The notes under the pieces are model-generated. The model saw only the letters and a list, made by a program, of their open reading frames with translations, was not told the origin of the DNA and did not search any database. 58,780 nt of DNA from a virus, in the IMG/VR virus record IMGVR_UViG_3300045988_043483, one strand, 5' to 3'. The translations under genes were made by a program, and so were the position numbers. Of this stretch, positions 1 through 43,910 are shown piece by piece (within the stretch, counting starts at the first letter, position 1; each line of letters begins with the position of its first letter).

Positions 1-81
1 ACCTGTCGCAGAGGATGCACCGTAGTCACCTGTCGCAGAAGATGCACCGCAGTAACCTGTCGCAGAAGATGCACCGCAGTC
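1..81 (-). repeat. Three 27-bp tandem coding repeats (units 10-12 of a 12-unit array that begins at 58483)
   Basis: Unit is acctgtcgcaga[g/a]gatgcacc plus a variable hexamer (gtagtc/gcagta/gcagtc). Nt 1-55 are identical to 58726-58780. Confidence 0.9.
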
Positions 82-423
82 TTCATCACTTCTAGCTTCT
101 TTTTTAACTCTGCTCATAGTAAAATCAATGGCTGCCTTTACCAGTCCAGCAACGTCCAGTCTTACACCGACCTTAATTTTTGTTGATGCAACCTTGGAAT
201 CATCTTCACCTCTGTCAAATTCACCGCTCTGCTCCACCTCATGGTAAACAGATTCGTTCGGCGAATAGTAACCAAGGCAATCCAGAGGATGTTCACAAGC
301 ATGGAATCCACTATGACATACATCTGCTGTTTCCTCTTCGTACTCCTTGCCCTCTTCGTACTGGAATCCACGGCAAGTCATGTCCTTGTTGAATCCTTTG
401 TAACTTTTAATTACTTCTGCCAT
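1..423 (-). CDS. Repeat-containing phage protein, N-terminal part. The gene crosses the circular junction and continues at 58725->58180.
   Basis: ATG at 423 with AAGGAG 9 nt upstream. The frame is open to nt 1 (MAEVIKSYKGFNKDMTCRGFQYEEGKEY...HSGFHACEHPLDCLGYY...SDEDC, then GASSATGxx repeats). It is absent from the ORF track because it runs off the window. With the 55-bp overlap removed it is in frame with 58180..58725 (423+546=969 nt, 322 aa). Confidence 0.8.
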   Translation of the reverse strand, partial: MAEVIKSYKGFNKDMTCRGFQYEEGKEYEEETADVCHSGFHACEHPLDCLGYYSPNESVYHEVEQSGEFDRGEDDSKVASTKIKVGVRLDVAGLVKAAIDFTMSRVKKEARSDEDCGASSATGYCGASSATGDYGASSATG

Positions 424-4535: not shown

Positions 4536-5261
4536 TTAAGCACTTCGCTTTGCTTCTATTTTTCTTCTGATTGCATCAACACCTTTTTGATAAACAAGTG
4601 TTTTTATAGATATATGCTCCTCTCCATTCTTGGTGTATTTCTGCTCTATTACACGAAACCATCCGCAATCAATGTATTTCTGATATGGCACATTCCATCT
4701 ATCCAGGATTGCATTATCACGAAGAAATTCAAATAGGTTGTTACGTCCGAGCCCTTTGATTCCCAATACCTTTGAAACCTCATTCATGGAAATTGCAGTC
4801 TTGCTGTCTGCAACTGCATCAAAGAAATCTGCTTTCGGTCGCATTTCTTCGATTTGCTTATCTTTCTGCGAAATAATGTTCTGTGCTACGATAAGTGCAT
4901 TCGCTACAATCTGCTCTGGGGTCATATTCTCTTGGTTTGCTATGTACCCACCATTCTTTCTGATGGACGGGATCACTTCATCCACAACCCACGATTCAAA
5001 TTTCTCCGCTGATGGCAACTTCGATCTCATAATAAGGCGGTAAACGTCACCCTCATTTATGTATGACAACTCTTGTTTACCACCAGATGTAGGGGTGTCA
5101 CGTTTCGTTACTCCCTTACAGTGGTCTATGACTGCCTTTCTGGGGTTTGCATATCCAAGTGCTGTTGCAACATCAGAAGCCACAAAGTAAGGCTTACCGT
5201 TGATTTCTGCTGTTCTGATTGTTCCAAATTCTTCATTATTAAAAATTTGTAATTCTTCCAT
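4536..5261 (-). CDS. Phage antirepressor (Bro-N domain plus KilAC/ANT C-terminal domain)
   Basis: N-terminus LQIFNNEEFGTIRT...PYFVASDVATALGY...VYRLIMRSKLPSAEKFESWV is a typical Bro-N sequence. C-terminal part has the KilAC-like PKADFFDAVADSKTAISMNEVSKVLG. Confidence 0.8.
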   Translation of the reverse strand: MEELQIFNNEEFGTIRTAEINGKPYFVASDVATALGYANPRKAVIDHCKGVTKRDTPTSGGKQELSYINEGDVYRLIMRSKLPSAEKFESWVVDEVIPSIRKNGGYIANQENMTPEQIVANALIVAQNIISQKDKQIEEMRPKADFFDAVADSKTAISMNEVSKVLGIKGLGRNNLFEFLRDNAILDRWNVPYQKYIDCGWFRVIEQKYTKNGEEHISIKTLVYQKGVDAIRRKIEAKRSA

Positions 5262-5272
5262 GTTTCTCCTTT

Positions 5273-5449
5273 CTATTCAGTTTTAACTCTTCTTGAATCT
5301 TCAAATGCCACAAGGTCATCCTCTGTGATCCTGTATTCTCTTCCTAACTTGATTGCCCCAAGTTTTTTTTGACGAATCCATTCCCAAACAGTAATGACTT
5401 TTACCTTGTATCTCTCTGCTACCTCTTCACAAGTAAACATTTGTGCCAA
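5273..5449 (-). CDS. Small HTH DNA-binding protein (excisionase/MerR-like; Cro/Xis candidate), below the ORF-track cutoff
   Basis: ...MFTCEEVAERYKVKVITVWEWIRQKKLGAIKLGREYRITEDDLVAFE. First gene of the leftward operon. TTG 5449 lies 7 nt after GGAG, with an alternative ATG at 5440. TAG at 5273-5275. Confidence 0.6.
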   Translation of the reverse strand: MAQMFTCEEVAERYKVKVITVWEWIRQKKLGAIKLGREYRITEDDLVAFEDSRRVKTE

Positions 5450-5476
5450 AATATCACTCCTTTCCGTAAATAATAC

Positions 5477-5505
5477 TTGTATATACCTCGGTTTAGTGAT
5501 ATAAT
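5477..5505 (+). promoter_or_regulatory. Rightward sigma70-type promoter TTGTAT-17-TATAAT
   Basis: -35 at 5477-5482, -10 at 5500-5505, 17-nt spacer containing TCGGTTTAG. Confidence 0.6.
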
Positions 5506-5591
5506 CTCCTTTGTCGAACGAGTTACATCTTTTTAACGAAGTATTTTTCTAGAAACTATTTTTATATTTCGTTTTGCCGAGGTATGTACAT

Positions 5592-5620
5592 AGTATATCT
5601 CGCTAAACCGAAGTTGTCAA
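5592..5620 (-). promoter_or_regulatory. Leftward sigma70-type promoter TTGACA-17-TATACT
   Basis: On the minus strand the -35 is at 5620-5615 and the -10 at 5597-5592. The 17-nt spacer contains the same TCGGTTTAG motif. It fires toward the 5477 promoter. Confidence 0.6.
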
Positions 5621-5664
5621 TAGTCTATTTCGTTATGCCGAAATATTTTTTAAGAGGTGATATT

Positions 5665-6384
5665 ATGTACAAAACTTTCGAAAAATTGTGTGAATTAAAA
5701 GGAATTACACCATATAGGTTTGGTAAAGATACTGGTGTTAACTCTTCTACTTTAAGCACATGGAAAAAGAAAAATTCTATGGCAGATCCGAAGACCTCTC
5801 AAAAAGTCTGTGAATACTTTGGAGTATCTATGGACTTCTTAATGGGAAAAACTGATAAAATTGTTTGTGAAGAATGTGGAACAGAATACAATCCATTTGA
5901 TGACTTTGATTGTGCTATTCACGAAAATGTTCATAAAACTATAGAAGCAGCAGAAAAATTAAATATAGACTTGGTTCCATATAAGGATATTATAAAAAAA
6001 CGAGTAGACTATAAAATTAAATTAGAAGATGGAACATTTGACTTTGAAAATGATTTGACCGATTATTTGAAAGTGCGATATTCTGATTATATTTATAACA
6101 ATGTTGGTAGCACTAATCTCATTGACAGAATGGGTTATTATAAGAAATGCCTTGTTGAGATTATCAACAATGGATTTGTGCCGGAAAATAATATAAACAC
6201 TTTTGTAGAATCATTTGGATTAAATAGAGATTACATAGACATGAACGGAGCTTTTATAGCCAGAATAAGCAAAAATTATGATGTGATGAAACTTGCTAAA
6301 ATTGCCGAAAAGCTTCCACCAGAAATGCTCAATATGCTTTTGTTTCAAGCGGAAGCTTTTTACGATAAATATACCAAGGGGTGA
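5665..6384 (+). CDS. XRE-family HTH regulator with a C-terminal domain of unknown function
   Basis: Start moved to ATG 5665 (AGAGGTGA upstream). MYKTFEKLCELKGITPYRFGKDTGVNSSTLSTWKKKNS is a typical HTH_3 sequence. Confidence 0.7.
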   Translation: MYKTFEKLCELKGITPYRFGKDTGVNSSTLSTWKKKNSMADPKTSQKVCEYFGVSMDFLMGKTDKIVCEECGTEYNPFDDFDCAIHENVHKTIEAAEKLNIDLVPYKDIIKKRVDYKIKLEDGTFDFENDLTDYLKVRYSDYIYNNVGSTNLIDRMGYYKKCLVEIINNGFVPENNINTFVESFGLNRDYIDMNGAFIARISKNYDVMKLAKIAEKLPPEMLNMLLFQAEAFYDKYTKG

Positions 6385-6510: not shown

Positions 6511-6743
6511 CGTAACCACGCCCCTCTCTCTTTAATTCTCCACACAATCTAAAGTAGCGAACAAACACATTATAGAACATACGTTCTAAACAATCAATAT
6601 ATTTGACTCACGTTTTTTATTGTTGTAAAATATCAACAAAAGAGGACGGTGAAAACGCCAATAAACACCGCCCTCGCCAGAACTTGAAGTCCCTTGAAAC
6701 AAGGGATGTTACAAGTGTATCATGTGAAAGGGGGATAAAAAAC

Positions 6744-7535
6744 ATGATGAAAAAAGACCGAATCAAAGAAATTTCGACACATTTATCAGTCAACCGTACT
6801 AATTATATGTTAAGTTTTCGTGGAAATCTCCATGAATTTCTAAATGAACCGGACATGACGGTTTACAAGCTTGCTGATGAAGCTAATTTGCCTTATTCTA
6901 CGCTTAATTCACTACTATACGGTAATTCTAACGACACGAAGCTATCGACCGCTGTTGCGCTTGCTAGAGCCTTCGGAATAAGTGTAGACGAACTGGTAGG
7001 TTGCGGCACTATGGAAGATAAGATGTTGGAATCTGTCAAGATATGCCGCAGTCTTCCGGAACACTCTCTGTATCTTATCCGTTACTTCATACGTCACCAA
7101 GCTAAAATCTATTCCAGTCTTGAAAAATCGCACAAGTATATTTCTGTTCTTAATCCACAACTTATGAATGGAATTATCGCAACCACAAATGCTGTGGAAC
7201 CCATGTGCATAGACAGTTTGCCGGAAGACATAAAATCCAAGGCTTATATCGGTGTGAAAATTCCGTGCGACTACTATATGCCGTTTTATCTGCCTGGGGA
7301 AATTATTCTCCTTGCAGCGGATCGTGAGCCGCAAGACGGTGAACGATGTATTGTGACCAGTAATGGTGGGATTTATATTGTCGTGAAAACACATATAATT
7401 AAAGATGGTGTAAGAAAATGGAGACATGTTCCGCTTATGTCTCCGAACAGCATACTCCCGGAAAATCTTATTGATGACATGATAGGATATGTGGTTGGTT
7501 TCGTCAACAATGACGGTGACTGGGGAATCAGATAA
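6744..7535 (+). CDS. CI-like repressor: XRE HTH plus a LexA/S24-like C-terminal fold
   Basis: Start moved to ATG 6744 (AAGGGGGA upstream). HTH: MTVYKLADEANLPYSTLNSLLYGN. C-terminus GEIILLAADREPQDGERCIVTSNGGIYIVVK...IGYVVGFV follows the S24 beta-fold pattern, but no G-D/M-S-M nucleophile motif is evident (CDYYMP instead). Confidence 0.65.
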   Translation: MMKKDRIKEISTHLSVNRTNYMLSFRGNLHEFLNEPDMTVYKLADEANLPYSTLNSLLYGNSNDTKLSTAVALARAFGISVDELVGCGTMEDKMLESVKICRSLPEHSLYLIRYFIRHQAKIYSSLEKSHKYISVLNPQLMNGIIATTNAVEPMCIDSLPEDIKSKAYIGVKIPCDYYMPFYLPGEIILLAADREPQDGERCIVTSNGGIYIVVKTHIIKDGVRKWRHVPLMSPNSILPENLIDDMIGYVVGFVNNDGDWGIR

Positions 7536-7542
7536 ATAGATT

Positions 7543-7575
7543 AAGAGCATGGCTTTTACACCATGCTCTTTTTTG
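7543..7575 (+). terminator. Rho-independent terminator after the CI-like gene
   Basis: AAGAGCATGG-cttttaca-CCATGCTCTT followed by TTTTT. Confidence 0.8.
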
Positions 7576-7598: not shown

Positions 7599-7904
7599 AT
7601 GACTGCTTCTGTAAATGGCAAGTTAAACACTAAATTAGATACTAGCAGTTATGTCAAGAGTTCTAATGGTTCTCTTTTGGGACTGGTAAAAAATAATGAA
7701 GTATGGCTTATTATCTTTAACCGTATATCTACAGCAGACACTTGTGTTTGTGTAGCATCAAGATATGCTGATGTGGTTAGTGCTCATACTATATCAAAAT
7801 CGGATACTATGGTTGTCGAGTATAATAATCAAGGCACGATTACGGTAAAATACAACGGATCTACAAATGGCGTATATGGCGGAGCTTTTAAATTTTTCGG
7901 TTAA
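7599..7904 (+). CDS. Silent alternative tail-fibre C-terminal cassette (promoterless, no SD)
   Basis: The ORF lies tail-to-tail with the fibre gene. Its ATG sits immediately after the terminator with no RBS. Codons 5-10 (VNGKLN) lie in the 18-bp inverted repeat shared with the fibre gene. Confidence 0.5.
   Translation: MTASVNGKLNTKLDTSSYVKSSNGSLLGLVKNNEVWLIIFNRISTADTCVCVASRYADVVSAHTISKSDTMVVEYNNQGTITVKYNGSTNGVYGGAFKFFG
7610..7627. repeat. Inverted repeat, left copy: TGTAAATGGCAAGTTAAA
   Basis: 17/18 identical to the reverse complement of 8174-8191. Both copies are in the same codon phase. Confidence 0.85.
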
Positions 7905-7929
7905 ATTCATATGAAGAATAGCAAATAAG

Positions 7930-9189
7930 TTACTTATATGCCACAATAAAGTTCAATTTAAAAACTGTATCATGACTTACGTTTGCAATTTGATATGCAT
8001 AAAACTTGCTATTACTTGCAAATCTTACATTAACTGCCCAATCACAATTTGCAAACACCCCAAATACATTTGCATTATTTGGCAATCCAAAGTCAGACAA
8101 GGAGCCTAAAAAGGACTGTTTATTCGCCACTAATAGAGTAACAGATGTTGATATTGATGCAAATTTCAAACCATTTAAATTGCCATTTACATCACTTAAT
8201 CCCCCAGTAACAGTCCCATCACCAATAGCCGAAATATCGGTAGTTCCGATAAGGCTTATAAGTGATTTGAGGTTTTTTACGGCCAGTTTAATTTTTCCCA
8301 AAATAGATGATAACTTTTCTCCTGTCGTTAATTCCTCTAAAGTTGTTGCTTCTTCAAACGCCGCAGTCAAATTACTACCATCACCAGTTTTGGTCAAATA
8401 GTTTGTCAAATCTGGTTTTGGAATTGCATCTATTTTTTTATCAACAGTGGTTTTGTCATAATAATTTGTCAAATCAGAAACTTTTTTTGTAATGTATCCA
8501 GCATCATTTTCTAATTCGCTAACTTTTGTTGGTATTCCTCCTGTTTGCTGTTTTGCCTGCTCCATATAATACTTTGCGTTATCTGTATCTTCTCCTTCTC
8601 TTGTTCCGGTTCCACCTACGGCATAAGATTCAGCCAATACAGATTTTGCATTTGCGGATTGCGCATAAGCAGATGCATTTGCGGATTCTACTCTAATATC
8701 TGCTAAATAATTAGGCTGAAGCATATCATCTGTTACTGATCCTGTTTTTATCGAAAAAGAATAAGTCTTATTCTTTCCAGTACCAGTCACTGATACAGCT
8801 ATGGTTGCAGAATCTTCAAATGTCAACACCGGAAGCATAGAACCAATATCAGCTGTAAACTGTGTTCCATCTTCTGTAGTCATGGTAATGATTCCGTCAT
8901 CAGACATTGAAAAGCCGACAGGAATTTTTTCAATGTTGAGGTCAAAAATAATCTTTTCACCGTTGTACTTTGTAATAGTAATAATACCGGTTGTTTCATC
9001 CATAGTCCAATCAGCAATATTCCCGTTTATTGCAGACTTGTCTACTTTTAAGGCATCCTGTAATATGATACGGTTGTCCAACGCATCAATAGCAGAATCC
9101 ATCTGATTAAGATTGTATGCATCTAAATCCGTGTTTTCACTTGGATAATCTTCCCAGTTAATTCTGGTATAAACCTTATTCAACGCCAT
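7930..9189 (-). CDS. Tail fibre / receptor-binding protein
   Basis: N-terminus MALNKVYTRINWEDYPSENTDLDAYNLNQMDSAIDALDNRI is the usual fibre N-terminal motif. Last gene of the tail module. Confidence 0.75.
   Translation of the reverse strand: MALNKVYTRINWEDYPSENTDLDAYNLNQMDSAIDALDNRIILQDALKVDKSAINGNIADWTMDETTGIITITKYNGEKIIFDLNIEKIPVGFSMSDDGIITMTTEDGTQFTADIGSMLPVLTFEDSATIAVSVTGTGKNKTYSFSIKTGSVTDDMLQPNYLADIRVESANASAYAQSANAKSVLAESYAVGGTGTREGEDTDNAKYYMEQAKQQTGGIPTKVSELENDAGYITKKVSDLTNYYDKTTVDKKIDAIPKPDLTNYLTKTGDGSNLTAAFEEATTLEELTTGEKLSSILGKIKLAVKNLKSLISLIGTTDISAIGDGTVTGGLSDVNGNLNGLKFASISTSVTLLVANKQSFLGSLSDFGLPNNANVFGVFANCDWAVNVRFASNSKFYAYQIANVSHDTVFKLNFIVAYK
8174..8191. repeat. Inverted repeat, right copy (plus strand TTTAAATTGCCATTTACA)
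   Basis: Inside the fibre gene, encoding VNGNLN, 83 codons before its stop. Confidence 0.85.
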
Positions 9190-9672: not shown

Positions 9673-11586
9673 CTACGTCATAAGTGTGACAATTCCAGAT
9701 GTTGCAGTGAGCAAACCTCCAAGTGATGAAACTCCTGTAATAAAATTAACATTATGTCCAGGATAATCAGCAACATTGGCTGTTTGTGTTACCAAAGATA
9801 CATCTGATACGGTTCCATTTATATAATTTTTTGTGACACTTAATGTGGCACTTGTCAGTACTGTCTTACTGCCTAATATTTGAGAAGTTGTTGATATGTT
9901 TTTTACATATTGTGAATCATATGTTGCTCCATTTCCTACCACTAAAATTCCGCTTACACTTACCATTGAAGCATCAATAGTAAGATATTGTCCCAATCCT
10001 TTTATAGATCCTGTGCTTTGCAATAGTTCGTTATAAAATTTAATTTCACCTGATGATACTTCTGTGTAACTTCCGTCTTCCCCTATAGACTTAAAACTAC
10101 CAGTCATTACTGCGTTTTTAGCTGTTATAGTTCCATCTGCTGATATGCTACAGTTATCTGCTTCCAATACAAAACGGTTTCCAGAAATACTTACCTGTCC
10201 ACTTTCAACACTTAACTGAGAACTAACATCACCTTTTGATACTTTTAATTTGATTTGGTCTGCCTGCAAAGATATTGCCGCTGCCAATTCTACTTCTGTA
10301 TCTGTTGCCCTTTTCGCTTCTGCTTCAATTTTTCCTGCATTTTGCGTAATTTTCGTATCCAATCCGCTCTCTACATCCTTGATCTCAGATCGTGTTTCCT
10401 CAACAGTACGTTCTAACTCATTTGTTTTTCCACGGAGTTGAATTATACTTTTGTTAATTCCATTTACCTGTTCACTGTATTTTGGTGCTTTTCCGGTGGC
10501 AGATATGGTGTCTATCGGTTGTTGGATTCCTTTGTATGTTCTGCTCAACACATAGCTTTCTATGATTTCTTTAGCCGTATATACATTGACTGCTTCTCCA
10601 AGGCTCAAACAAGGATTTCCTATTTTTTCACAGTTATAAGGTCTATATTTTACAACTTTAATAACCTCATACAGATTTCTTGCAACCGTTTCTAGGGCAT
10701 CTGCACCCATTCCATAAACAAGGAAATTATCTTGCAAAATATAACTGTTGTCGTTGTCGGTAATCTCTGTATCTGGGTAAACTGCACCAATATCATTTTC
10801 TGATTGCCTTATCTGCACTTTTGTAACTTTTTGGCAGACAAAATCTTCATATTTAACTGATTTGTATTTTCCACCAGTAACCTTTTCTTTTTTAGAACCT
10901 TTTCTAGGGTATAATCCTTTCTGTGGATATAATCCTTTTTGTGGATATAATCCGGATATTATTTCTTTAAGGAAAACATATTCAAATTTTCCATCATGGT
11001 TAATGTGACCAAAGCATCCATTTATTGAGCAGATTGCTTCCATGACCGTCTGACCAGAAAGTTCGCTTGGTTTGATTGTTTCTGCCATTTCCATGCTGTC
11101 ATTAGGCAATGTGGTTGCTACTTGCTCAACACCAAAATATGAAAAAAAGCTGTCTCTGAACTGCTTTAAGGTCAGAGGAAATTTCAATCCGTTATACCAG
11201 GAAGATACTTCTGATTCTCCAATATCGTATATGGCGTCATATGCCGTCACATTCCTGTAACGCTTATCATCTGTTGGTTTATCGGAAATGACACGGTATT
11301 TGCCGAAAATAAACGGTGCGTCAGCATGTCCATTAATCACAGCAGAAACATTTATCTGTTTCCCAATCATGCTTGTGAACACGTTGGAAATTTTGAATTT
11401 TAACTGTGATGCATTGCACTGTCCAAATGTAAGGTAATCATCATCACATAGTATTTCTTTTAATTCAAACTGTTCAAAATGGATTTCGCTGTTGGTGATT
11501 TTTACAGACTTGTCCTCTGTTTCAATCGTGATTTCCTTTTTGGATGCGCTTTTATCAAACAAATCCGCATAGGTATAGTTACTCAT
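9673..11586 (-). CDS. Tail-associated (Tal-like) minor structural protein
   Basis: 637 aa, positioned after the TMP and a small tail protein. Has a coiled-coil segment and a Gly/Ser/Thr-rich C-terminus. Contains (GLYPQK)x3. Confidence 0.6.
   Translation of the reverse strand: MSNYTYADLFDKSASKKEITIETEDKSVKITNSEIHFEQFELKEILCDDDYLTFGQCNASQLKFKISNVFTSMIGKQINVSAVINGHADAPFIFGKYRVISDKPTDDKRYRNVTAYDAIYDIGESEVSSWYNGLKFPLTLKQFRDSFFSYFGVEQVATTLPNDSMEMAETIKPSELSGQTVMEAICSINGCFGHINHDGKFEYVFLKEIISGLYPQKGLYPQKGLYPRKGSKKEKVTGGKYKSVKYEDFVCQKVTKVQIRQSENDIGAVYPDTEITDNDNSYILQDNFLVYGMGADALETVARNLYEVIKVVKYRPYNCEKIGNPCLSLGEAVNVYTAKEIIESYVLSRTYKGIQQPIDTISATGKAPKYSEQVNGINKSIIQLRGKTNELERTVEETRSEIKDVESGLDTKITQNAGKIEAEAKRATDTEVELAAAISLQADQIKLKVSKGDVSSQLSVESGQVSISGNRFVLEADNCSISADGTITAKNAVMTGSFKSIGEDGSYTEVSSGEIKFYNELLQSTGSIKGLGQYLTIDASMVSVSGILVVGNGATYDSQYVKNISTTSQILGSKTVLTSATLSVTKNYINGTVSDVSLVTQTANVADYPGHNVNFITGVSSLGGLLTATSGIVTLMT
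10907..10956 (-). repeat. 18-bp tandem repeat, about 2.7 copies, encoding GLYPQK/GLYPQK/GLYPRK
   Basis: GGRTATAATCCTTTYTGT units read directly on the plus strand. Confidence 0.85.
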
Positions 11587-12001
11587 TCGCTACACCTCCG
11601 ACAAATGAAAATTCTATCTGATTGTATTTAATCTCTCCGTCATAAGTTCCGTAGATTGTAGGCTTTATATCAGCCATATATCCATATTGTGTGACATATT
11701 GACCTAAAAATGGAATGTATGCCGTGATATTACATCCCTGTTCCGTTGCATCAATAAAGTTTCTTCGTATCCCGGACAGTAACTCTTGCAAATCGTCATC
11801 CGTCAGCATCGCAGGCGTGGAAAAATCAACACTTAATGCTTTTAGCTCCACAGCATTTCTATGTACGTATCCATTTGCATCAGTCCACGGGTCTACATCT
11901 TGCATATTTACGGCCGGCTGATAACTTTCAGCGGCTATAAATCTTGACTGGTCAATAACGTAATCTCCAATTTTTAAAAGCCATCCTTGATATGCTGACA
12001 T
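11579..12001 (-). CDS. Small tail protein (position of the distal tail protein)
   Basis: Call rests on synteny only: immediately after the TMP, overlapping the Tal start. Confidence 0.4.
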   Translation of the reverse strand: MSAYQGWLLKIGDYVIDQSRFIAAESYQPAVNMQDVDPWTDANGYVHRNAVELKALSVDFSTPAMLTDDDLQELLSGIRRNFIDATEQGCNITAYIPFLGQYVTQYGYMADIKPTIYGTYDGEIKYNQIEFSFVGGVANE

Positions 12002-12058: not shown

Positions 12059-15000
12059 TTAAAATACATATACATTCTTGTGTTTTTGGTTAAATTGCTC
12101 TTGACCGTATTGTCTTGCGGCAATTCCAATTTGATCTGTTGTTATTCCAAACTCTTTCTCAAGGATTCCTTGCAGTAGCTGATTATTCTGTTTCAGAAGT
12201 GCAATTTCCTGTTGTGCCGTGGAATTAATAGCATCTTTTATTCCAGTGATTTCAACTCCACCGGCAACCGCTGTCTTGCCTCCTACTGTCCCGGCAATCT
12301 CCGGTACACCGTTTTCTCCTGCCATGATCATCGTGTATCGGCTCGGAACGTAACCACCGGTATCAAATCGAGGAATACTTATTTTAGGTATTTGCACTGG
12401 CTTGAAACTTATTCCTATAGCTTCAGATATGCCACTAATCAGACCAAAGCCATCAATAAAAGCGTTTATTCCATCAATAATCAGATTTACGCATCCCTCT
12501 GCTATGGATACAAGGTTGTTAAATGTTCCTTTGAAAATGTCTTTTATTCCGTCCCATGCTTTTCTCCAGTTTCCAGTAAATACACCGGAAACAAAATTAA
12601 TTAGTCCTTTTAATTTTGTTCCAAGGTTTTTGATAATATTACCTATTGCATTAAATACAGTTTCAAAAGCAGGCTTTAAATCTTCCCACAAATGAGTGAC
12701 TATGAGAGATAAAACATTGTCCCATAAGAAGTTGAATACTTCTATTACTGGTTTTACTTGTTCTACCAGAAAATTCATGGTATCGACTATCGCATCAAAT
12801 GCAGCTCCTAAAACACTTCCTAATGCTTGTGCCAAAGGAACTACTACATTTTTCCAAAGTACCGTAAGTATATCAGTAACAATTTGAATTGCAGGCTTTA
12901 AGATATTTCCAAGGAATGTTCCAAACGGAACAAGCACTCCATTCCAAAGATTTTCAAAAGCACTTTGCAATTTCGGAAGCACTTCTTCACCAACATATTT
13001 TAATGCGGGATTTAGCATATCCTGCCATATGCTTGTGAATGCAGTCTTCAAAAATTCTCCTATCGGAGTAAGCACATCTACAAGCCCTGTCCATGCATTC
13101 TGTAAATCTGGTATAACCGTTGTTGTCAAAAACTCCATTGCAGGAGTTAGGTTATCCGCAATGGCTGAAATTGATTCCTTGAAACTATTTCTAACATCCT
13201 CGTTTGTCGCATATACAAGCGCAAGTCCTGCTACAACCGCTGTGATAGCCGCTGTTGCCGCTACTGCTCCTGCACTAATACCACCAAACAATCCGGTTGC
13301 TCCTGCTGCTGCCGCTCCCCCTGCTCCTGTTGCCGCTCCAGTTCCTAATAGACTTCCGAGAATTGTTTCTCCGATTCCTGCTCCTGCCTTACCGCCCATT
13401 GACAAGACAATAGAATCTTTTATTGCTTTCCACAGAATATCTCCCAAGCCAGTGAATTTCAAAAGTCCTATTGCTGTTAGAATCGTAGTTTCAATCGGTG
13501 CAGCATCAAAACTTCCTTTCCATAGGTCGATTGCCGCATCTATGGCAGTTTTTATGAAATTTCCGGCAGATGTAAACACAGCAGTCCAGTCAATACCAGC
13601 AAGAAACTGTCCTATGTTTTGCCCAATCTGATACCAATCTACAGATGCAATAGCATCGGACATCCAGTTAAATATCCCTGTGACAATACCGGATAAATCT
13701 TGTCCTGCTTCGAAGAAATCACCATTGAATAAATCTTTGAATAACTTTTTCACAGGCTCAAGAAGTTTTTCTATCTTATCAGCCCAGCCAAGAGCTGTAT
13801 TCTGCATCTTGTCAAATGCTTCCTGCCATACTTTTTCGTACTCTGCAGTAGCATCCATGATTTCCTTGGTAAGGTCAATTCCTGTTCCACCAGCGCCACT
13901 TCCGGAACCACTGGATTTTGGAGTTGAAATAACTTTCAATTTATCAAATGCTCTGATTCCGCTTTGAGCATTTTTTGCACTTGTACCAACTTTATCAAGT
14001 GCATCTGCCGTGTCTTCCAAATCTTCATTGTACCCGGATACACCTTGACCGAATGACGAAAAGTCAATCTTGATTCCCAGCAAATTTGCCACACTGACAA
14101 GCAATCTCTTAATTGCAATTACGACACCGTTAATAACAGGAAGTACTTTCTGCAATACCGGAATAAACAACTGTCCCAGTACCATTCCGGCTTCTTTTAC
14201 GTTGTTAGTAAACTGGCGAATCATATTACTTGGAGAATTGATTGTATTCGCTAAATCTCCCCATGATACTTTGGACTGGTCTAAGATTGCAAGTAAACGC
14301 AACTGCTGTTTCTCTGCCTGTGACATTTCAGATACAGCCTTTTCAATGCCGTATTTGTAAGCATAAGTCTGCAGTGTGGCATTTGTGATATCAATACCAT
14401 ACTTATACAGTGCTCTTGACTGACCGATCAAACCGGACTGTAAGTTTGTTGCAACTGTACTGAAATCCACGTTAAACAGAGATGAAATGTCCCCAGCAAG
14501 CATTGTCATGGACTTTGAAATTGCCGTAGTGACTTCTCCGGTCTGCCCTAAAGAGTTGGTAATAGATGCAAGTTGTGAAGCGTACTGCGTAATCTCCTGT
14601 AAATTCAATCCCAGGTTTTTCATTCCGCTTTCAGAAATCAATCCACCGTCTACATCTACTTTTAGACCGGACATTTTACCCAGCAGTTCATTTACACGGT
14701 TTCCGAAGCTCTGCGCATAATCCTCTGCGTTGTCGTAACCGAATTTTTCAAAATCCTTGCCCCATTCCTTGCCGACTTTATTAAATGCTACCGTGTAGTA
14801 GTTAAATGCTTCGATATAGTCCGTAGTTCCCTCTATGGACTTCCACAGGCTTTTAATTCCACGGATCACAAGGAAATATGTTGCGTAGAATCTGCCGAAA
14901 GCCGCAGCAAGACTGAATGTGCTCTTCGTGGCTCTTTTTGCGCTTGCCGTATAGGTGTTCAGATTCCGTCCTAAAGAGTTTGCGGCTCTGCCGGATGCCG

Positions 15001-15514
15001 CACCAGTAGATGCCAGTCCTGCCAGTGCATTTGTCATGCGGATAATGTTCTCACTGACATTCGGAGCGGTTGAAAGAGTTGTAAATAACTGCTTCAAATT
15101 CTTTGCCAGTAAAGGAATGTTCGTGATTGCTCTGCCGGATGCAACGCCTCCGAGTCTTGAAATCGAAGATGCTATGCTCGCAATATCCCCTACTCCATCT
15201 ACTTTTGTTCCTGCCATGTCAGCAGAAAAAGTCTTCAGTGCAGATGAAATTCTGCTTAATCCGCTTGTATCTATTTTCCCCATTCTGTTAATGGAATTTG
15301 TCAATGTGGAGATATTCTTAATACCGCTCGTATTCATGGAACTGGCGGCATTTGCGATACTCTGTATGCTATTAGAAATGCTTGTCAGTTTGGATGTATC
15401 AATAGACAAGCTTCTCTGAAAATTCGTAAGACTTGATGCAAGTTTATTCAGCGCATTAGTTGCTTTGTCCGCATCCGCACTGATTTTTATTTGAAGATTA
15501 TCAATATCTGCCAT
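12059..15514 (-). CDS. Tape measure protein
   Basis: 1151 aa, helical and Ala/Gly-rich with a hydrophobic central segment, downstream of the G/GT chaperones. Confidence 0.85.
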   Translation of the reverse strand: MADIDNLQIKISADADKATNALNKLASSLTNFQRSLSIDTSKLTSISNSIQSIANAASSMNTSGIKNISTLTNSINRMGKIDTSGLSRISSALKTFSADMAGTKVDGVGDIASIASSISRLGGVASGRAITNIPLLAKNLKQLFTTLSTAPNVSENIIRMTNALAGLASTGAASGRAANSLGRNLNTYTASAKRATKSTFSLAAAFGRFYATYFLVIRGIKSLWKSIEGTTDYIEAFNYYTVAFNKVGKEWGKDFEKFGYDNAEDYAQSFGNRVNELLGKMSGLKVDVDGGLISESGMKNLGLNLQEITQYASQLASITNSLGQTGEVTTAISKSMTMLAGDISSLFNVDFSTVATNLQSGLIGQSRALYKYGIDITNATLQTYAYKYGIEKAVSEMSQAEKQQLRLLAILDQSKVSWGDLANTINSPSNMIRQFTNNVKEAGMVLGQLFIPVLQKVLPVINGVVIAIKRLLVSVANLLGIKIDFSSFGQGVSGYNEDLEDTADALDKVGTSAKNAQSGIRAFDKLKVISTPKSSGSGSGAGGTGIDLTKEIMDATAEYEKVWQEAFDKMQNTALGWADKIEKLLEPVKKLFKDLFNGDFFEAGQDLSGIVTGIFNWMSDAIASVDWYQIGQNIGQFLAGIDWTAVFTSAGNFIKTAIDAAIDLWKGSFDAAPIETTILTAIGLLKFTGLGDILWKAIKDSIVLSMGGKAGAGIGETILGSLLGTGAATGAGGAAAAGATGLFGGISAGAVAATAAITAVVAGLALVYATNEDVRNSFKESISAIADNLTPAMEFLTTTVIPDLQNAWTGLVDVLTPIGEFLKTAFTSIWQDMLNPALKYVGEEVLPKLQSAFENLWNGVLVPFGTFLGNILKPAIQIVTDILTVLWKNVVVPLAQALGSVLGAAFDAIVDTMNFLVEQVKPVIEVFNFLWDNVLSLIVTHLWEDLKPAFETVFNAIGNIIKNLGTKLKGLINFVSGVFTGNWRKAWDGIKDIFKGTFNNLVSIAEGCVNLIIDGINAFIDGFGLISGISEAIGISFKPVQIPKISIPRFDTGGYVPSRYTMIMAGENGVPEIAGTVGGKTAVAGGVEITGIKDAINSTAQQEIALLKQNNQLLQGILEKEFGITTDQIGIAARQYGQEQFNQKHKNVYVF

Positions 15515-15603: not shown

Positions 15604-16482
15604 TTACTTTTTGAGATATGCCCTTGTAACCGCACCGACTTTTCCATCTACAGTGATTCCAACACTCTTTTGGAATGCTTTTACTGCATCAGAAGTGGTT
15701 TTTCCAAAATATCCGTCAATGTTCGTCTTACCTTTCGCATTTACAGACGGCATAAAGCCTTTCCTTACAAGTTCGTACTGCGCCCACTTGACATCGTTTC
15801 CCTTCATCATTGCCAGACGCTTGTAATAAAGAAGTCTTTCCGGCTCTGTATAAGGGTTGCTATGGCTTGTAGAATCCTCATATACGGCATTTAACTCCTT
15901 GTACCATACATTCATGTCTACATTGCCTACAATACCGCCTACACGCCCTTTAGAAGTATACTGCCAGCCTACCATGTTCGGTACTTGCGGTTGATACTTC
16001 ACATCACACTTGCCGTTATTCTTGCCGTACCGTGCAATCCACATAGGATAACTCACACCGCCATAAGGCTTAATGTATGTCTTGTAAAAACTTTCCCCAG
16101 TGTATACACCGAATGGCAATCCTGCATCGGTGATTACCTTTCCGTAAGCATTGATAATAGAAATAATATTTTTGCCAAGACCTTTCATAACGGCATCTTC
16201 AACATCAAGATATACTGTCACTTTTCTGCCATTAAGAATAGTAAGCACTCTTCTTGCATCAGATCGTGATTTTGCAACCGTTGTAATATATCCGTATTCA
16301 TATACTCCGTGCACATGGACATTGTGCTCTTTACAACCTTTCCAGTTCTCTTCAAACTTCTTGTCCGGGTTCAAATCCTTACGGATGACTTTCAAAATAG
16401 CAAAATCAATACCGTTCTGTTTTACCGCCCACCAGTTAATCGTCCCCTGGTATGAGGACACATCAATTCCTGTTAAACTCAT
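15604..16482 (-). CDS. Endolysin: GH25 muramidase plus C-terminal peptidoglycan-binding domain
   Basis: GIDVSSYQGTINWWAVKQNGIDFAILKV is GH25-type. The C-terminus DGYFGKTTSDAVKAFQKSVGITVDGKVGAVT is PG_binding_1-like. Confidence 0.85.
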   Translation of the reverse strand: MSLTGIDVSSYQGTINWWAVKQNGIDFAILKVIRKDLNPDKKFEENWKGCKEHNVHVHGVYEYGYITTVAKSRSDARRVLTILNGRKVTVYLDVEDAVMKGLGKNIISIINAYGKVITDAGLPFGVYTGESFYKTYIKPYGGVSYPMWIARYGKNNGKCDVKYQPQVPNMVGWQYTSKGRVGGIVGNVDMNVWYKELNAVYEDSTSHSNPYTEPERLLYYKRLAMMKGNDVKWAQYELVRKGFMPSVNAKGKTNIDGYFGKTTSDAVKAFQKSVGITVDGKVGAVTRAYLKK

Positions 16483-28104: not shown

Positions 28105-28395
28105 TTATTTCACCACAATTCTATTGATTTCCCCACATTTTGGGCATTTGATTTCAGCCTGTCCGTTGAATTTGCCTAAAAGGCGGTTGCATTTTCTACA
28201 ACGATGTTCGGACAGTTTTACATAAAAACATTTTTTCAAAGCTTCCTCGTCTTCCTTTGTATCTGCCACAACAATCGGGTCTTCTCCGAGTGTTGTACAT
28301 TCAATTTTTATATTTTCAATATTCCCGATGTTTTTAGGTGTGACCTGTCGAAACACATCACGTTCTATATTTTCAATTACTGCTGTCATGCTCAT
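28105..28395 (-). CDS. Protein with a Mu Com-like zinc finger at the C-terminus
   Basis: HRCRKCNRLLGKFNGQAEIKCPKCGEIN matches the Com pattern RC-x2-CN-x-LL...EI-x-CP-x-C. Confidence 0.55.
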   Translation of the reverse strand: MSMTAVIENIERDVFRQVTPKNIGNIENIKIECTTLGEDPIVVADTKEDEEALKKCFYVKLSEHRCRKCNRLLGKFNGQAEIKCPKCGEINRIVVK

Positions 28396-29010: not shown

Positions 29011-29027
29011 CCTCATATCCTCCGTAA

Positions 29028-29100
29028 CCCATGCAGACGGAATCGAACCGCCGACACACATCCTATGCGGATGCCGCTCTTCCACTGAAGCTATGCATGG
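29028..29100 (-). tRNA. tRNA-like gene with CAU anticodon (Met/Ile2-type) and an atypical anticodon loop
   Basis: Perfect 7-bp acceptor CCATGCA/TGCATGG and T-arm GGCGG-TTCGATT-CCGTC. The anticodon loop is CGCATAG, which has G at position 33 and a possible C32:G38 pair. Confidence 0.5.
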
Positions 29101-29261
29101 AAATCGCACCGTAAAACCTTTTATGGCTTGCGCAAGCCATAACCAAATGTGCACCGCCTACTTGTCACTGACTATCCACAATCTCACAGTCTTGTCTGTT
29201 CTCTACTTCATAGGCTTGGTTTTTCGCTAAACATATGTGGCTTACGTTTTAGCTAGGGAAT

Positions 29262-29368
29262 AGTTGCCGTGGGAGTTGAACCCACCCGACGCAAACAAGG
29301 TACGACTACTTTTGAATCTGCAAATTCTACTCGCAGAAGTGTTTTTCGTTGACCGATAATGAGCAACT
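29262..29368 (-). ncRNA. 107-nt tRNA-like element (canonical T-arm and acceptor pairing, non-canonical body)
   Basis: T-arm GTGGG-TTCAACT-CCCAC, and acceptor AGTTGCT/GGCAACT, but 66 nt lie between the acceptor 5' strand and the T-arm. One possible fold has GCAGA/TTTGC closing a 21-nt loop that starts TTCAAAA. Confidence 0.3.
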
Positions 29369-29437
29369 ACTATCCATACATCTCCCATCGACCTGAACTA
29401 TTGCAGTAGTGCCAGACTAAGTGGAGACAAGGATAAA

Positions 29438-29505
29438 CACGCCCGGAAAGCATCGAACTTTCGCTAGAGGTTTTGGAGACCTCTTTCTGACCAACAGACA
29501 GACGT
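29438..29505 (-). tRNA. tRNA-Trp(CCA)-like, compact (68 nt including the discriminator)
   Basis: Anticodon arm GAGGT-CTCCAAA-ACCTC, T-arm GAAAG-TTCGATG-CTTTC, acceptor ACGTCTG/CGGGCGT with two G.U pairs, and a reduced D-arm (CTG-TTGGT-CAG). Confidence 0.45.
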
Positions 29506-29657
29506 ATATAAAGTTTTCACGATTTTTTGAAACTTGAAACGGTCAAACTTTTTCATTGCTTTCCAAAACAAGAGGATTTGTCACTATCTCAACAAAGCTA
29601 CTTCCTAGGATTTTCACTTCTCAATAATGACTACTGGTCGAATCCTTCATCGACGCA

Positions 29658-29739
29658 CGCCGTACACAGGATTTGAACCTGCAAGCCTTTTACAGCCAAC
29701 GGTTTTCAAGACCGCTCCCTCACCACCCGGACATACGGC
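29658..29739 (-). tRNA. tRNA-Ser(UGA)
   Basis: Anticodon arm GCGGT-CTTGAAA-ACCGT, long variable arm, T-arm GCAGG-TTCAAAT-CCTGT, acceptor GCCGTAT/GTACGGC. Confidence 0.75.
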
Positions 29740-29862
29740 AGATATGACAGTGTAATGGAACTGCCATATCTGAAATTGCTTTTGCCATTACTTTGTACAA
29801 TTTCATGCGGACTTTCTACCGCTTACGGCAAACCTTTTCCTAGGTTTATTGCCGTAAGTTAG

Positions 29863-29947
29863 CGCAGTGTGTAGGACTCGAACCTACAAGGCTAATAAAC
29901 GCCCGGCGGCTTAGCAAGCCGTTCCAATACCATTATGGGAACACTGC
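29863..29947 (-). tRNA. tRNA-Ser(GCU)
   Basis: Perfect acceptor GCAGTGT/ACACTGC, anticodon loop TTGCTAA, long variable arm, T-arm GTAGG-TTCGAGT-CCTAC. Confidence 0.8.
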
Positions 29948-30108
29948 ATAGCCGGAGGGCTTTTTACTTGGTTATCCTCCCGCCCAAGGATCTTTTAGTC
30001 AGCCGCAAGCGGCTCTATCAAGTTCCCATGAGATAAACATTAACCGGTGTATTTATCCCCTATGCTTCTGTAATAAGCATACTCGGAGTGTACTTGCAAC
30101 AACACCTA

Positions 30109-30182
30109 ATGGGATGATGGGACTTGAACCCACAGCCTATGCCTTAGAAGGACACTGCTCTTTCCATTTGCGCTACATCCCA
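30109..30182 (-). tRNA. tRNA-Arg(UCU)
   Basis: Acceptor TGGGATG/CATCCCA, anticodon arm GTGTC-CTTCTAA-GGCAT, T-arm GTGGG-TTCAAGT-CCCAT. Confidence 0.8.
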
Positions 30183-30183
30183 A

Positions 30184-30254
30184 TGATCGGTACGAGATTC
30201 GAACTCGCGTTACCACCGTGAAAGGGTGGTGTCTTACCACTTGACTAACCGATC
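30184..30254 (-). tRNA. tRNA-Glu(UUC)
   Basis: Acceptor GATCGGT/ACCGATC, anticodon arm CCACC-CTTTCAC-GGTGG, T-arm GCGAG-TTCGAAT-CTCGT. Confidence 0.85.
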
Positions 30255-30620
30255 ATGTGCGTTTCCATAAGCTGTATGCCTACATTTAAGGCGCTGACAC
30301 AGCGCAACACTTATGGCTATTTTTATTTTCGCAGGACATCCGCCAGTTACCTGCTAGTTGGGAGCAACCCAACCGTCTACGCCAATTTTATGTCCGCAAT
30401 GGCTGTGCGGGATTTTAATGTCTTTACTGACAACCCACGGATTAAAACCTACAACGGTATTCCGCAAAAACCGGGCTATCATAAACCGGTTAAACCCTCA
30501 CGAGCCTTGCGACGGCTCTTAACAGCATTCCGCTATGAGGGGAAAGGAGTGTCTCCAATGGAAAAGTATGGAAGACAATTCGCAGATGGCAAAGACCGAA
30601 AGAAGAAAACATCTGCGAAA

Positions 30621-30692
30621 CAGGACTACCAGGATTCGGACCTGGGAATGCAGCAGTCAAAGTGCTGTGCCTTACCGCTTGGCGATAGTCCT
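30621..30692 (-). tRNA. tRNA-Gln(UUG)
   Basis: Acceptor AGGACTA/TAGTCCT. The D-arm and variable region are near-identical to E. coli tRNA-Gln as I recall it. Anticodon arm CAGCA-CTTTGAC-TGCTG. The T-loop is TCCGAAT, i.e. C at position 55. Confidence 0.8.
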
Positions 30693-30997
30693 AAACTCCA
30701 GGAGAGAGACCATCTGCTCCCGGATTATTTTTTCGTGAAACACCCTATATTGCTTTATCTAAAAAAATTTTTACGCCTGTGTACAGTACTTTGAAAAACT
30801 TAGTGTTGTCGAACGCATTATTCCATTTTTCGTTTCCCACACACAGGCTGCATACACTCTTGATGCCTTGATTTCTCTGCCACATATCCAATGCCAACAC
30901 AACACCAGATATTCGGCAATAACAATGGCTTTATGAATTTAACCCATTCAACATTGTGATATGGGATAATTCGCATAATCTCCGGTAACCACATAAG

Positions 30998-33245: not shown

Positions 33246-33458
33246 TTAATAACAAGGGTTTTCTTTTGCCAGCTCCCAAACCTCATTAAATTTTTGCTCG
33301 TGCCGTTTTGCATACTCGTCAAAAAATTGCTGATCTGTGCACGGTGCAAGATCTCCGTGTATCTCCTCTCGCAAATCGTCATCCATAAAAGATACCGACA
33401 AATCATAATCAATGTTTACTCCATACTCGTTTACTACTGTTTTTCTCATTTTTGCCAC
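33246..33458 (-). CDS. Small acidic hypothetical protein (70 aa)
   Basis: Operon-oriented ORF. Confidence 0.55.
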   Translation of the reverse strand: MAKMRKTVVNEYGVNIDYDLSVSFMDDDLREEIHGDLAPCTDQQFFDEYAKRHEQKFNEVWELAKENPCY

Positions 33459-42377: not shown

Positions 42378-42503
42378 AAGGTCATCCCTCCTTATGCTTA
42401 AATTTTGGCATAAAAAAAGACGGTCTACCCGTCATGTATCCGTCACATTTCATTCACTATAAAATTATTGGAATCTTTGCAAAAAACTCCTTTCGTTTTA
42501 GGC

Positions 42504-42688
42504 TTGACTACTATTTTGACTACTATTCGACTACCCGTTGCCCGGGAATGCCCATTTTATCAGCTTTTTCGAGTGGAAGCAAGGGGGCTCGAACCCCACT
42601 CTATTCCTCTTACTTTCCGCATATTTACTGGCTTTCTAGGTGTTTTTTGTTGATTACTTTTGACTACTTTCGCAAAAATAGTAGTCAA
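42504..42688. mobile_element. Candidate attP region: tRNA 3'-end fragment flanked by arm-type repeats
   Basis: Minus strand 42600->42574 reads TGGGG-TTCGAGC-CCCCT-TGCTTCC-A, a T-arm plus 3' acceptor with no 5' half. TTGACTACTATT occurs twice at 42504-42527, with a partial copy at 42528-35, TTGACTACTTT at 42660-70 and an inverted copy at 42677-88. Confidence 0.55.
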
Positions 42689-42689
42689 A

Positions 42690-43910
42690 TCACCTTGCCT
42701 GTAAATCTGGTATACTACTCAAAATAGACGATTTCTTTTCAATGGTTTTCCTGTTCCTATGATAGTGTATTTCTGATGTCATAATATCTGTATGCCCCAT
42801 CTGATCCATAACAAGTCTCTTATCCACATTGTTATCCATAAGAATAGTTCCATATGTCTTTCTTACTTTGTGCGGTGGCTTTGGATAAATTTTCAATTTC
42901 CTGCAAAGCCTTTTCTGCCTTTGTCTAACCGCCTGTGCGGTGATCCTAATATCATTTTTTGTAAAAATGTAATCTCCAAACGGATTCATGTGTTTTATTT
43001 TATCGCAAATCCATACATAATCACTTGGTATAATTGCTGTTCTGATTCCTGCCTTGGTTTTAGGATACTCTTTTACTTCAACAACATTGTTTCCGTTTTC
43101 ATCTTTATACTTCGTCTCCGTTCTGCGAACGTTAAAAGTATTATCAGAAAAATCGGAATGCCTTAATGTTACAACTTCTCCGATACGTACACCAGTTAAA
43201 AACATAAGCAATATCGCAACATTAGAAGTATCAAGGTGGCTGACAAGATACTTAATCATTACATCAGTTTCATATTCGTCGAATACTTCTTCATAGTCTT
43301 CTTTTATTACTTTTTTAAAATCACTATCAGATACGTCAAGATTATCAAACAGTTCTACGATATTAAAATCAATAAGTTTGCGTTTTTTCGCTCTTTTAAG
43401 AAATGTTCTTGTAATTCCTTTTAGACCGGAAAATGATTTAGGTGTCAACTCTTTATCGGCAATTTCTTCCTCTAAAAAATCCCCCCATTCATCTTCTGAT
43501 ATTGATTTTATTCTTCGCTTTCCCAACTCTCCATAGTGTCTGAGAAAATATCTCTCGTCTCTGTCGTATGTTGCTTTACATATCTTTTTAAGAGACAATC
43601 TCCGGTCTTCACATTCGTAAAACACTTCTGTAACTGTTGGATTTTGCTCTTTTTGGTAGTAAAACTCAATAACTTCTTCTTTGAGATCTTCCTCGCTTTT
43701 CTTTTTTACAAGTCTCCTTCCTTTTTCTTCATCTGGCAAATAAGTTCTCCAGTATCCGTCTTTGCCTTTGTTGATTGCGTATTGGTGTTTCTTCAGATAC
43801 TCCTCTTTCTTTTTCATTTCAATGCTTTTTTGCAAAGATTCCGTGTCAATCATACCATTGCTAACGGCATATTGCAATATTTCCATATCAGAAAGTTCCA
43901 AATCTATCAC
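42690..43910 (-). CDS. int: Tyrosine recombinase / integrase
   Basis: TGVRIGE (Arg I), PHKVRKTY (His-x-x-Arg) and GHTDIMTSEIHYHRN (His/Tyr) in the C-terminal domain. Confidence 0.85.
   Translation of the reverse strand: MIDLELSDMEILQYAVSNGMIDTESLQKSIEMKKKEEYLKKHQYAINKGKDGYWRTYLPDEEKGRRLVKKKSEEDLKEEVIEFYYQKEQNPTVTEVFYECEDRRLSLKKICKATYDRDERYFLRHYGELGKRRIKSISEDEWGDFLEEEIADKELTPKSFSGLKGITRTFLKRAKKRKLIDFNIVELFDNLDVSDSDFKKVIKEDYEEVFDEYETDVMIKYLVSHLDTSNVAILLMFLTGVRIGEVVTLRHSDFSDNTFNVRRTETKYKDENGNNVVEVKEYPKTKAGIRTAIIPSDYVWICDKIKHMNPFGDYIFTKNDIRITAQAVRQRQKRLCRKLKIYPKPPHKVRKTYGTILMDNNVDKRLVMDQMGHTDIMTSEIHYHRNRKTIEKKSSILSSIPDLQAR

Follow-up and report, generated by a model that had tools for sequence, protein, structure and literature searches.

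A candidate DNA-inversion switch for the receptor-binding tip of a distal tail fibre in temperate phages of gut Firmicutes

Results

An invertible segment at the end of a tail-fibre gene

The 58,780-nucleotide viral sequence in IMG/VR record IMGVR_UViG_3300045988_043483 (this whole stretch is referred to here as the window) carries a tail-fibre gene whose 3' end, judged by comparison of assembled sequences, probably belongs to a switch that exchanges the receptor-binding tip of the distal tail fibre by conservative DNA inversion. The constant part of the fibre (residues 1-333) ends in a short crossover site, and an inverted second site lies 565 bp downstream, just past the terminator of a CI-like repressor gene. 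Two convergent, promoterless C-terminal cassettes occupy the space between the sites, with cassette A expressed and cassette B silent. Site-to-site recombination would flip a segment of 580 bp, joining B in frame to the constant part to give a 430-residue fibre and silencing A. The A and B tips would presumably confer different adsorption specificities, and the inversion would be catalysed by a site-specific recombinase that recognises the asymmetric site. The elements of the locus are the following.

7930..9189, minus strand: tail-fibre open reading frame (ORF), 419 aa, which closes the tail module
8191..9189, minus strand: constant N-terminal part of the gene for the distal tail fibre, a putative receptor-binding protein; aa 1-333, ending ...GGLSD
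8176..8190, minus strand: proximal crossover site, located within the fibre gene; its core, GTAAATGGCAATTTA, encodes V334-N-G-N-L338 (arm originally placed at 8174-8191)
7930..8175, minus strand: cassette A, the C-terminal domain expressed in the window; aa 339-419 and stop
7599..7904, plus strand: convergent ORF, 101 aa, tail-to-tail with the fibre ORF
7626..7904, plus strand: cassette B, the putative silent alternative C-terminal domain; about 92 aa and stop, with the frame open from site to stop
7611..7625, plus strand: distal crossover site, core GTAAATGGCAAGTTA (arm originally placed at 7610-7627)
7599..7610, plus strand: conserved outer flank of the distal site, ATGACTGCTTCT, which supplies the apparent ATG of the distal ORF
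7611..8190, no strand: invertible segment, 580 bp, holding both convergent cassettes; delimited by its inversion relative to loci L027, L036, L050 and L051
7543..7570, plus strand: hairpin and T-run that terminate the CI-like gene, immediately outside the switch
6603..7535, plus strand: CI-like helix-turn-helix repressor gene (PF13443/PF01381, phrog_4), which flanks the switch and is context outside the proposed mechanism

The original prediction, made from the letters of the window, had described a fibre ORF on the minus strand facing a plus-strand ORF, linked by an inverted repeat in a shared codon phase, and had proposed that inversion would exchange the fibre C-terminus in frame. The coordinates of both ORFs hold, and the repeat is real: TGTAAATGGCAAGTTAAA (7610-7627) and the reverse complement of 8174-8191 agree in 17 of 18 bases, with no extension on either side. 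V-N-G-(K/N)-L-N is read in frame on both arms, and in-silico inversion of 7628-8173 gives a 430-aa fibre together with a 90-aa reciprocal ORF. With 18 nt and one mismatch the repeat is short, and many weaker inverted repeats lie nearby, which might suggest a chance match in AT-rich DNA. However, inverted repeats of this class (18 nt, at most one mismatch, within 1.5 kb) occur at two loci in the whole window and average 0.1 per genome, never more than 1, in 40 Markov-simulated genomes, both arms are in frame, and over 100 related loci have kept the repeat. A chance match, to which we attach virtually no probability, is thus already refuted by the comparative data.

The flipped state occurs in related phages

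For the comparison, 80 IMG/VR loci with the constant region (88-98% identity) were fetched and all their sites and cassettes catalogued. A search with the fibre returned close relatives at 84-98% identity in which homology ends at ...GGLSDVNGKL and is followed by unrelated C-termini of 80-115 aa. Syntenic contigs always hold one convergent ORF of ~100 aa that starts MT(A/T)SVNGKL and is then wholly divergent. Both sites are present in 81 related loci, which between them carry ~40 unrelated cassette types in 30 pair combinations, and every one of these types begins at the same core and in the same frame.

The flipped state, for which the original prediction had proposed a search in related genomes, was found. 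Four IMG/VR loci (L027, L036, L050 and L051) and L353/P0175 have B expressed and A silent, with the constant fibre region joined in frame to B and the breakpoints inside the repeat. Aligned with the first four, the window is collinear in the flanks at 95-97% identity, while the interior is 54.5% identical when read directly and 93% identical as the reverse complement. Their junctions read constant region, core and B on one side, and outer flank, core and A on the other. B forms the fibre C-terminus in these five and in L212 and L213; A is the silent, inverted cassette in L027, L036, L050, L051, L213 and L214.

The predicted product was also recovered as a protein. Exact look-ups in a protein collection returned a ten-member cluster of 430-aa B-fibres, and P0175, from a syntenic locus, matches the in-silico product at 410 of 430 positions without gaps (95%). 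An impression that B is never fused to a long fibre, which came from a word-index protein search that listed just 82-166-aa proteins, was discarded on the strength of these look-ups; one 430-aa B-fibre was hidden in a cluster whose representative is a 113-aa ORF.

Inversion is not confined to this one pair. Five cassette pairs, the A/B pair of the window and four more, are seen in both orientations with identical segment length, and at least nine independent inversions are therefore needed among 41 genomes (parsimony on UPGMA trees of the flanks combined with the orientation-normalised interiors). With programmed gene-altering inversions the locus shares inverted repeats that overlap coding sequence and the occurrence of both orientations in natural sequences. 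Among 19 downstream contig ends, 8 fall inside the 640-nt switch where 3.0 are expected (p = 0.006), a weak hint of within-sample heterogeneity. Short contigs of 525-808 bp that carry B were considered as excised invertible segments and rejected as ordinary low-coverage fragments.

A short asymmetric core defines the crossover site

The arms of the 18-nt repeat stood up to comparison, but the conserved site is narrower, a core of 13-15 bp, (G/T)TAAATGGCAAGTTA, that encodes V/L-N-G-K-L. In dereplicated sites the information content is ~2 bits over GTAAATGGCAAGTTA and falls to 0.1-0.6 bit one base further towards the cassette, and in 89 related loci fibre-gene homology ends exactly after the 15-nt core. 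The core is retained even at synonymous positions and ahead of unrelated cassettes. All 80 related distal sites analysed have the distal core with at most two mismatches, and mostly exactly, and no third copy of the 15-nt core with at most two mismatches lies anywhere in the window. Outward of the proximal site the sequence runs on into the conserved fibre gene, and outward of the distal site there is a conserved non-coding flank, TTTTTATGACT(G/A)CTTCT.

The polymorphic positions help to place the exchange. The single mismatch in the window, G/T at core position 12, accompanies cassette A whether it is expressed or silent, whereas core positions 1-2 (GT or TT) follow the phage backbone and not the cassette. 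Because positions 1-2 stay with the backbone and position 12 travels with the cassette, the exchange point should lie within core positions 3-11 (AAATGGCAA). By inspection of the sequence logo and flanks, the crossover site has no dyad symmetry and consists of a conserved arm on one side and a spacer-like stretch.

The convergent ORF is read as a silent cassette

On the evidence of alignments, we conclude that the distal ORF (7599-7904) is a silent cassette and not a gene. The alternative would be an independent small gene, for example for a fibre accessory or a superinfection-exclusion protein made in the lysogen, that shares the motif with the fibre at the protein level. The ATG is indeed conserved (M-T-A/T-S-V-N-G-K-L) in the phage family of the window, the ORF lies downstream of CI on the same strand, and gene callers annotate it. 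However, as first noted in the original prediction, it lacks a Shine-Dalgarno sequence (no GGAGG-like motif precedes the ATG at 7599) and begins directly past the CI terminator, 29 nt beyond the hairpin and T-run (7543-7570). In other backbones the same flank reads ...TGA TCT ACT TCG TTA AAT GGC..., with an in-frame TGA four codons upstream of the core and no start codon; overall, the homologous flank lacks the ATG in two of four backbones. Database 'homologues' of the distal ORF are alike from precisely NGKL onward only, and what precedes it is either junk extension or a genuine short fibre N-terminus. Furthermore, the same sequences serve as the C-termini of full-length fibres. A plus-strand gene that stands by itself, free of the shared repeat, was not encountered, since every relative keeps the repeat. 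An independent small gene is therefore very improbable.

Silent cassettes are intact, as ORFs of 70-122 aa, in 76 of the 81 loci. Five 'locked' variants (L056, L057, L062, L069 and L089, at locus positions ~5000-5320) have an 18-aa stub as second cassette, and their distal cores carry 1-3 mismatches (GTAAATGGCAAGTTT, GTAAATGGCAATTTT and GTAAATAGCAATTTT). The pairing of a stub with a mismatched distal core in these loci is what one would expect of a site that is conserved only as long as it has a cassette to serve.

Identity and predicted structure of the fibre tip

The 419-aa fibre has no Pfam match, its sole PHROG match carries an uninformative name, and a PDB sequence search gave no match. 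We call it a distal tail fibre or receptor-binding protein because of gene position and fold, and this is not a family assignment. The tail module runs from the tape-measure gene (12059-15514, matching PHROG tape-measure families) through a DUF6711 gene (11579-12001), a gene for a 637-aa protein and two small ORFs to the fibre gene, and relatives keep the synteny of the CI-like gene beside the switch. The AlphaFold2 (AF2) model of cassette B is a confident one, a seven-stranded all-beta domain (predicted local distance difference test score (pLDDT) 85.6, predicted TM-score (pTM) 0.74). Its best PDB matches, 6e1r, 1qex and 6c72 (E 6e-3 to 2e-2, TM ~0.52), are C-terminal domains of phage tailspikes, fibres and T4 gp9, and its BFVD matches are tail-fibre and tailspike proteins.

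Sites and cassettes are shared across phage backbones

At least four backbones have in common the core, several cassettes (A, B, C and others) and the non-coding distal flank motif ACTNCTTC(T/G). The first is the 57-59-kb family of the window and the second a prophage (L002-L007) in which lysis genes come after a 252-aa fibre. The third is a window-like phage with a 159-aa fibre (L212). The fourth (L213, L214) has a P2-like baseplate and a fibre of 149 aa, and here B is the expressed cassette and A the silent one. The window has one segment and two sites only, whereas the 2-kb contig L001 contains two convergent pairs, four cassettes in all, a true multi-cassette array, and L032 holds three cassettes.

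Two further arrangements were seen. An orphan promoterless A/B pair with both sites lies at the very end of the L002 prophage (5434-6013; the same in L003-L007), after the lysin gene and adjoining a host AraC-family gene, and the fibre of this phage has a separate switch of its own. In P0007, a 61-kb contig, cassette B is joined at ...MYNG|KLN... to the inner part of cassette H. An internal pseudo-site of cassette H (L011, ~4860-4900), GATGTACAATGGAAGTA, resembles the real site, and from its sequence P0007 looks like a product of recombination at a secondary site.

A pattern scan for the distal site found at least 119 IMG/VR stretches, with an inverted pair within 1.5 kb in 90 of the matches listed. 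The fibre has relatives in more than 170 IMG/VR loci, and the phage family of the window is common in human-gut viromes. Among cultured phages, the phage collection searched held no near match and no phage with the switch. Roseburia phage Jekyll alone shares the fibre N-terminus (42.5% identity, 166 aa), without the site. Relatives of the integrase in species-representative genomes are at most 58% identical, and the good matches are all from Lachnospiraceae. Based on the Jekyll match and the integrase relatives, the hosts are probably Lachnospiraceae. A related fibre is also encoded on a 3-Mb NCBI contig.

Candidate recombinases

Pfam scans covered essentially all non-structural ORFs of at least 50 aa, the head and portal genes (~19.7-25.6 kb) being set aside. 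The absence of a Gin/Hin-type enzyme, noted at the outset, was borne out, with no PF00239 domain in the scanned ORFs of the window and an empty phmmer search with Gin against ORFs of at least 80 aa. One enzyme was left by the two approaches, as had also been anticipated.

42690..43910, minus strand: tyrosine integrase (PF00589, phrog_1), the sole site-specific recombinase found in the genome

Pfam matches elsewhere in the window include RecT (56330-57079) and an excisionase-type HTH_17 protein from a small ORF (5273-5449) that adjoins the antirepressor gene. The scanned ORFs contain no reverse-transcriptase domain, and variation of the fibre consists of whole unrelated cassettes, not of the adenine-specific substitutions that mark a diversity-generating retroelement.

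Beside the integrase gene lies an attP-like region (~42500-42690) with three direct and two inverted copies of TTGACTACTAT. At ~42567 related contigs either end or diverge, and this stretch bears no relation to the fibre core. A likeness between the att region and the fibre site was considered and rejected: there is no further core copy (at most two mismatches), and a by-eye ungapped similarity of 10/15 is at chance level. The idea that the att core is the 3' end of a tRNA was dropped as well, since in eight related contigs ARAGORN found the junctions free of tRNA genes. A perfect 17-nt inverted repeat, GGAATCTTTGCAAAAAA (42470-42486 / 43826-43842), brackets the att-like region and most of the integrase gene and is the only other repeat of that quality in the window. 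It was rejected as the boundary of a second invertible segment, inversion there being seen in 0 of 63 related loci.

Some relatives carry a different enzyme. L017 (6841-8238), L018, L053, L058, L079 and L334-L352 encode a 466-aa large serine recombinase (PF00239, PF07508, PF13408) that adjoins the CI-like gene, ~1.2 kb from the distal site; their early region is shorter, and that of the window is absent. Seven of the serine-recombinase contigs are 39.7-41.2 kb long with differing start points, and a tyrosine integrase match was found in 0 of 16 contigs carrying the serine recombinase. Both switch states occur among these relatives (L017 and L018 versus L053).

Discussion

Which enzyme could flip the segment

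The original prediction had named the integrase or a host invertase as the possible flipping enzyme. If the phage tyrosine integrase doubled as the invertase, the fibre sites would be secondary sites for it. It is the sole site-specific recombinase found in a complete genome, and the distal flank ATGACT(G/A)CTTCT resembles the arm-like TTGACTACTAT, 4 of whose 6 genome copies lie beside the integrase gene, a lead found post hoc. However, the att region is unrelated to the core and the window has no further copy of the core. The same core and flank also recur in unrelated backbones and, in both states, in the ~40-kb serine-integrase relatives that have no tyrosine-integrase match. We therefore regard the integrase as an improbable candidate. 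No recombinase lies within 8-10 kb of the switch in any of the backbones, and flipping tracks no single phage integrase family, which favours an enzyme acting in trans. We give about even chances to an enzyme supplied in this way, probably by the host, and consider an unrecognised phage protein an unlikely, though less remote, source. Thus the host half of the original suggestion is favoured and its integrase half is unlikely. More broadly, several unrelated temperate lineages of the same gut Firmicutes hosts (57-kb and 40-kb siphovirus-like phages and phages with a P2-like baseplate) may share one asymmetric site of 13-15 bp and a pool of at least 40 cassettes, all of them using a recombinase in trans that is host-encoded or of an unrecognised type. 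This wider proposal is tentative, and we rate it somewhat short of an even chance.

Programmed switch or modular evolution

Several points weigh against the favoured reading or limit it. The repeat is just 15-18 bp long and lacks dyad symmetry. The closest genomes in opposite states are still 0.55-0.68% apart. The fold matches of cassette B, though consistent, are weak, with no PDB hit at E <= 0.001, and the AF2 model of the whole fibre is unusable (pLDDT 39.6). The absence of the tyrosine integrase from the serine-recombinase relatives is deduced from permuted ~40-kb contigs without a match, not from closed genomes.

A different account of the locus would do without a dedicated recombinase, so that occasional general or RecT-type annealing, or template switching, at a short linker would shuffle the cassettes and the locus would reflect modular tail-fibre evolution and not a programmed event. 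DNA-level conservation of the core would also be expected if selection keeps a short homology, and the phage encodes RecT. In addition, cassettes reassort among pairs and backbones as in ordinary mosaicism, no invertase was found, and no near-identical genomes (>99.5%) in opposite states were found. However, homologous recombination usually needs more than 15 bp to be efficient, yet at least nine precise inversions occurred among the 41 genomes. The repeat is never longer than 15-16 bp even though a longer linker would cost nothing, and the non-coding outer flank is conserved across backbones. Furthermore, one silent cassette persists intact and in convergent orientation in each genome, an arrangement not expected from mosaicism alone, and P0007 resembles the outcome of recombination at a core-like pseudo-site. 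Shuffling by general homology is thus unlikely in our estimate.

Comparison with known inversion systems

The classic models of inversion at tail-fibre genes are Mu G/Gin, P1 C/Cin, e14 P/Pin and p15B Min. Such switches of the fibre tip are textbook for Mu and P1 and, to our knowledge, barely documented outside Proteobacteria. The likeness to Mu G, P1 C and the R64 shufflon that was originally suggested holds for the constant N-terminus, the convergent C-termini and the in-frame inversion, and fails for the adjacent invertase and the dyad-symmetric sites. As in the Mu G type, the crossover site lies inside coding sequence, the frame is kept and host-range switching is the presumed outcome. In contrast to it, the present locus has no adjacent serine invertase, has an asymmetric core of 13-15 bp in place of the 26-bp dyad-symmetric gix (gix/cix/hix), and spans 0.58 kb, compared with 3 kb, with no second gene of the chaperone U/U' type. 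The hosts here are also of Firmicutes type, by our assignment Lachnospiraceae.

R64 sites are asymmetric, with a single conserved arm and a spacer, which restricts recombination to inversion. The site described here resembles sfx (Rci) and rix (Rin) more than gix or hix. The R64 shufflon (Rci, pilV) likewise joins a constant N-terminus to alternative C-termini, and a multi-cassette form is seen here in L001 and L032. However, R64 varies a plasmid pilus adhesin with a dedicated adjacent tyrosine recombinase, Rci, whereas the window has a single segment and no adjacent recombinase. A short asymmetric site does stand at the start of each cassette, as in a shufflon, but several segments are lacking in the window and its only PF00589 protein is 34 kb away with an att region of its own.

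The closest precedent is found in Bifidobacterium prophages. The Rin shufflon of Bifidobacterium has an adjacent XerD-like tyrosine invertase, several cassettes and 11-bp asymmetric rix sites (Mavrich et al. 2018, PMC6109161). In bifidophages integrated at tRNA-Met, two genomes carry a ~500-bp segment, made up of a small gene and its neighbour's 3' end, in opposite orientations at an 8-bp sequence; this second inversion involves genes of unknown function and has no flanking recombinase, and an invertase acting in trans was proposed (PMC6109161). Like these systems, the present one belongs to a temperate phage of a Gram-positive gut bacterium and uses a short asymmetric site and small variable C-terminal cassettes of a receptor-binding protein. 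It differs in an unrelated site sequence, another host phylum, ~40 cassette types, at least nine inversions and occurrence in several backbones.

A shufflon in a BV01-like Phocaeicola phage has a flanking recombinase and three cassettes, set apart by a 10-bp directional motif and overlapping a tail-fibre gene at its 3' end, with all configurations seen in reads (PMC13596623). It is similar in being a gut temperate phage system with cassettes at the tail-fibre 3' end, and different in its Bacteroidota host, flanking recombinase and read support, the present locus being known from assembled sequences. In a survey of programmed inversions, the tail-fibre cases are mainly from Mu-like prophages (Milman et al. 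2023, PMC9881135). We found no such switch described in the literature on phages of Lachnospiraceae or other Firmicutes. The original view that the feature is undescribed for Firmicutes siphophages is thus upheld for Firmicutes, with the qualification that a Gram-positive precedent exists in the bifidophages (PMC6109161). What is new here is the host group, the size of the cassette pool and its sharing across backbones, and the absence of a cognate recombinase.

Implications

A receptor-binding domain with two states and a large exchangeable pool of cassettes would affect the prediction of host range from a single assembly, the way in which metagenome assemblers break or mis-join these genomes, and the modelling of phage-host dynamics in Lachnospiraceae. 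The missing invertase raises the testable question of whether a host recombinase is used to vary the adsorption apparatus of a phage. If the sites are indeed shared and served in trans, these phages would be varying their own adsorption specificity by means of a host enzyme. The short site and small modular cassettes (70-120 aa) could also serve the engineering of phage host range in Gram-positive gut bacteria.

Other features of the genome

The lysis genes are unusually placed. A gene for an endolysin with GH25 and PG_binding_1 domains (15604-16482) lies directly upstream of the tape-measure gene, within the structural operon, and in relatives a holin gene is found further upstream among the structural genes. 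The ends of the window (1-423 and 58314-58780) overlap by ~55 nt, so the assembly is circular (a 58.7-kb genome). The overlap lies inside a DUF7666 gene with 27-nt tandem repeats whose copy number differs among relatives. Seven tRNA genes (Met, Trp, Ser x2, Arg, Glu and Gln) are clustered at 29027-30693 on the minus strand. Finally, Pfam matches were obtained for two small ORFs, one at 33246-33458 to an AcrIC5 anti-CRISPR homologue and one at 28105-28395 to a Mu Com-like zinc ribbon.

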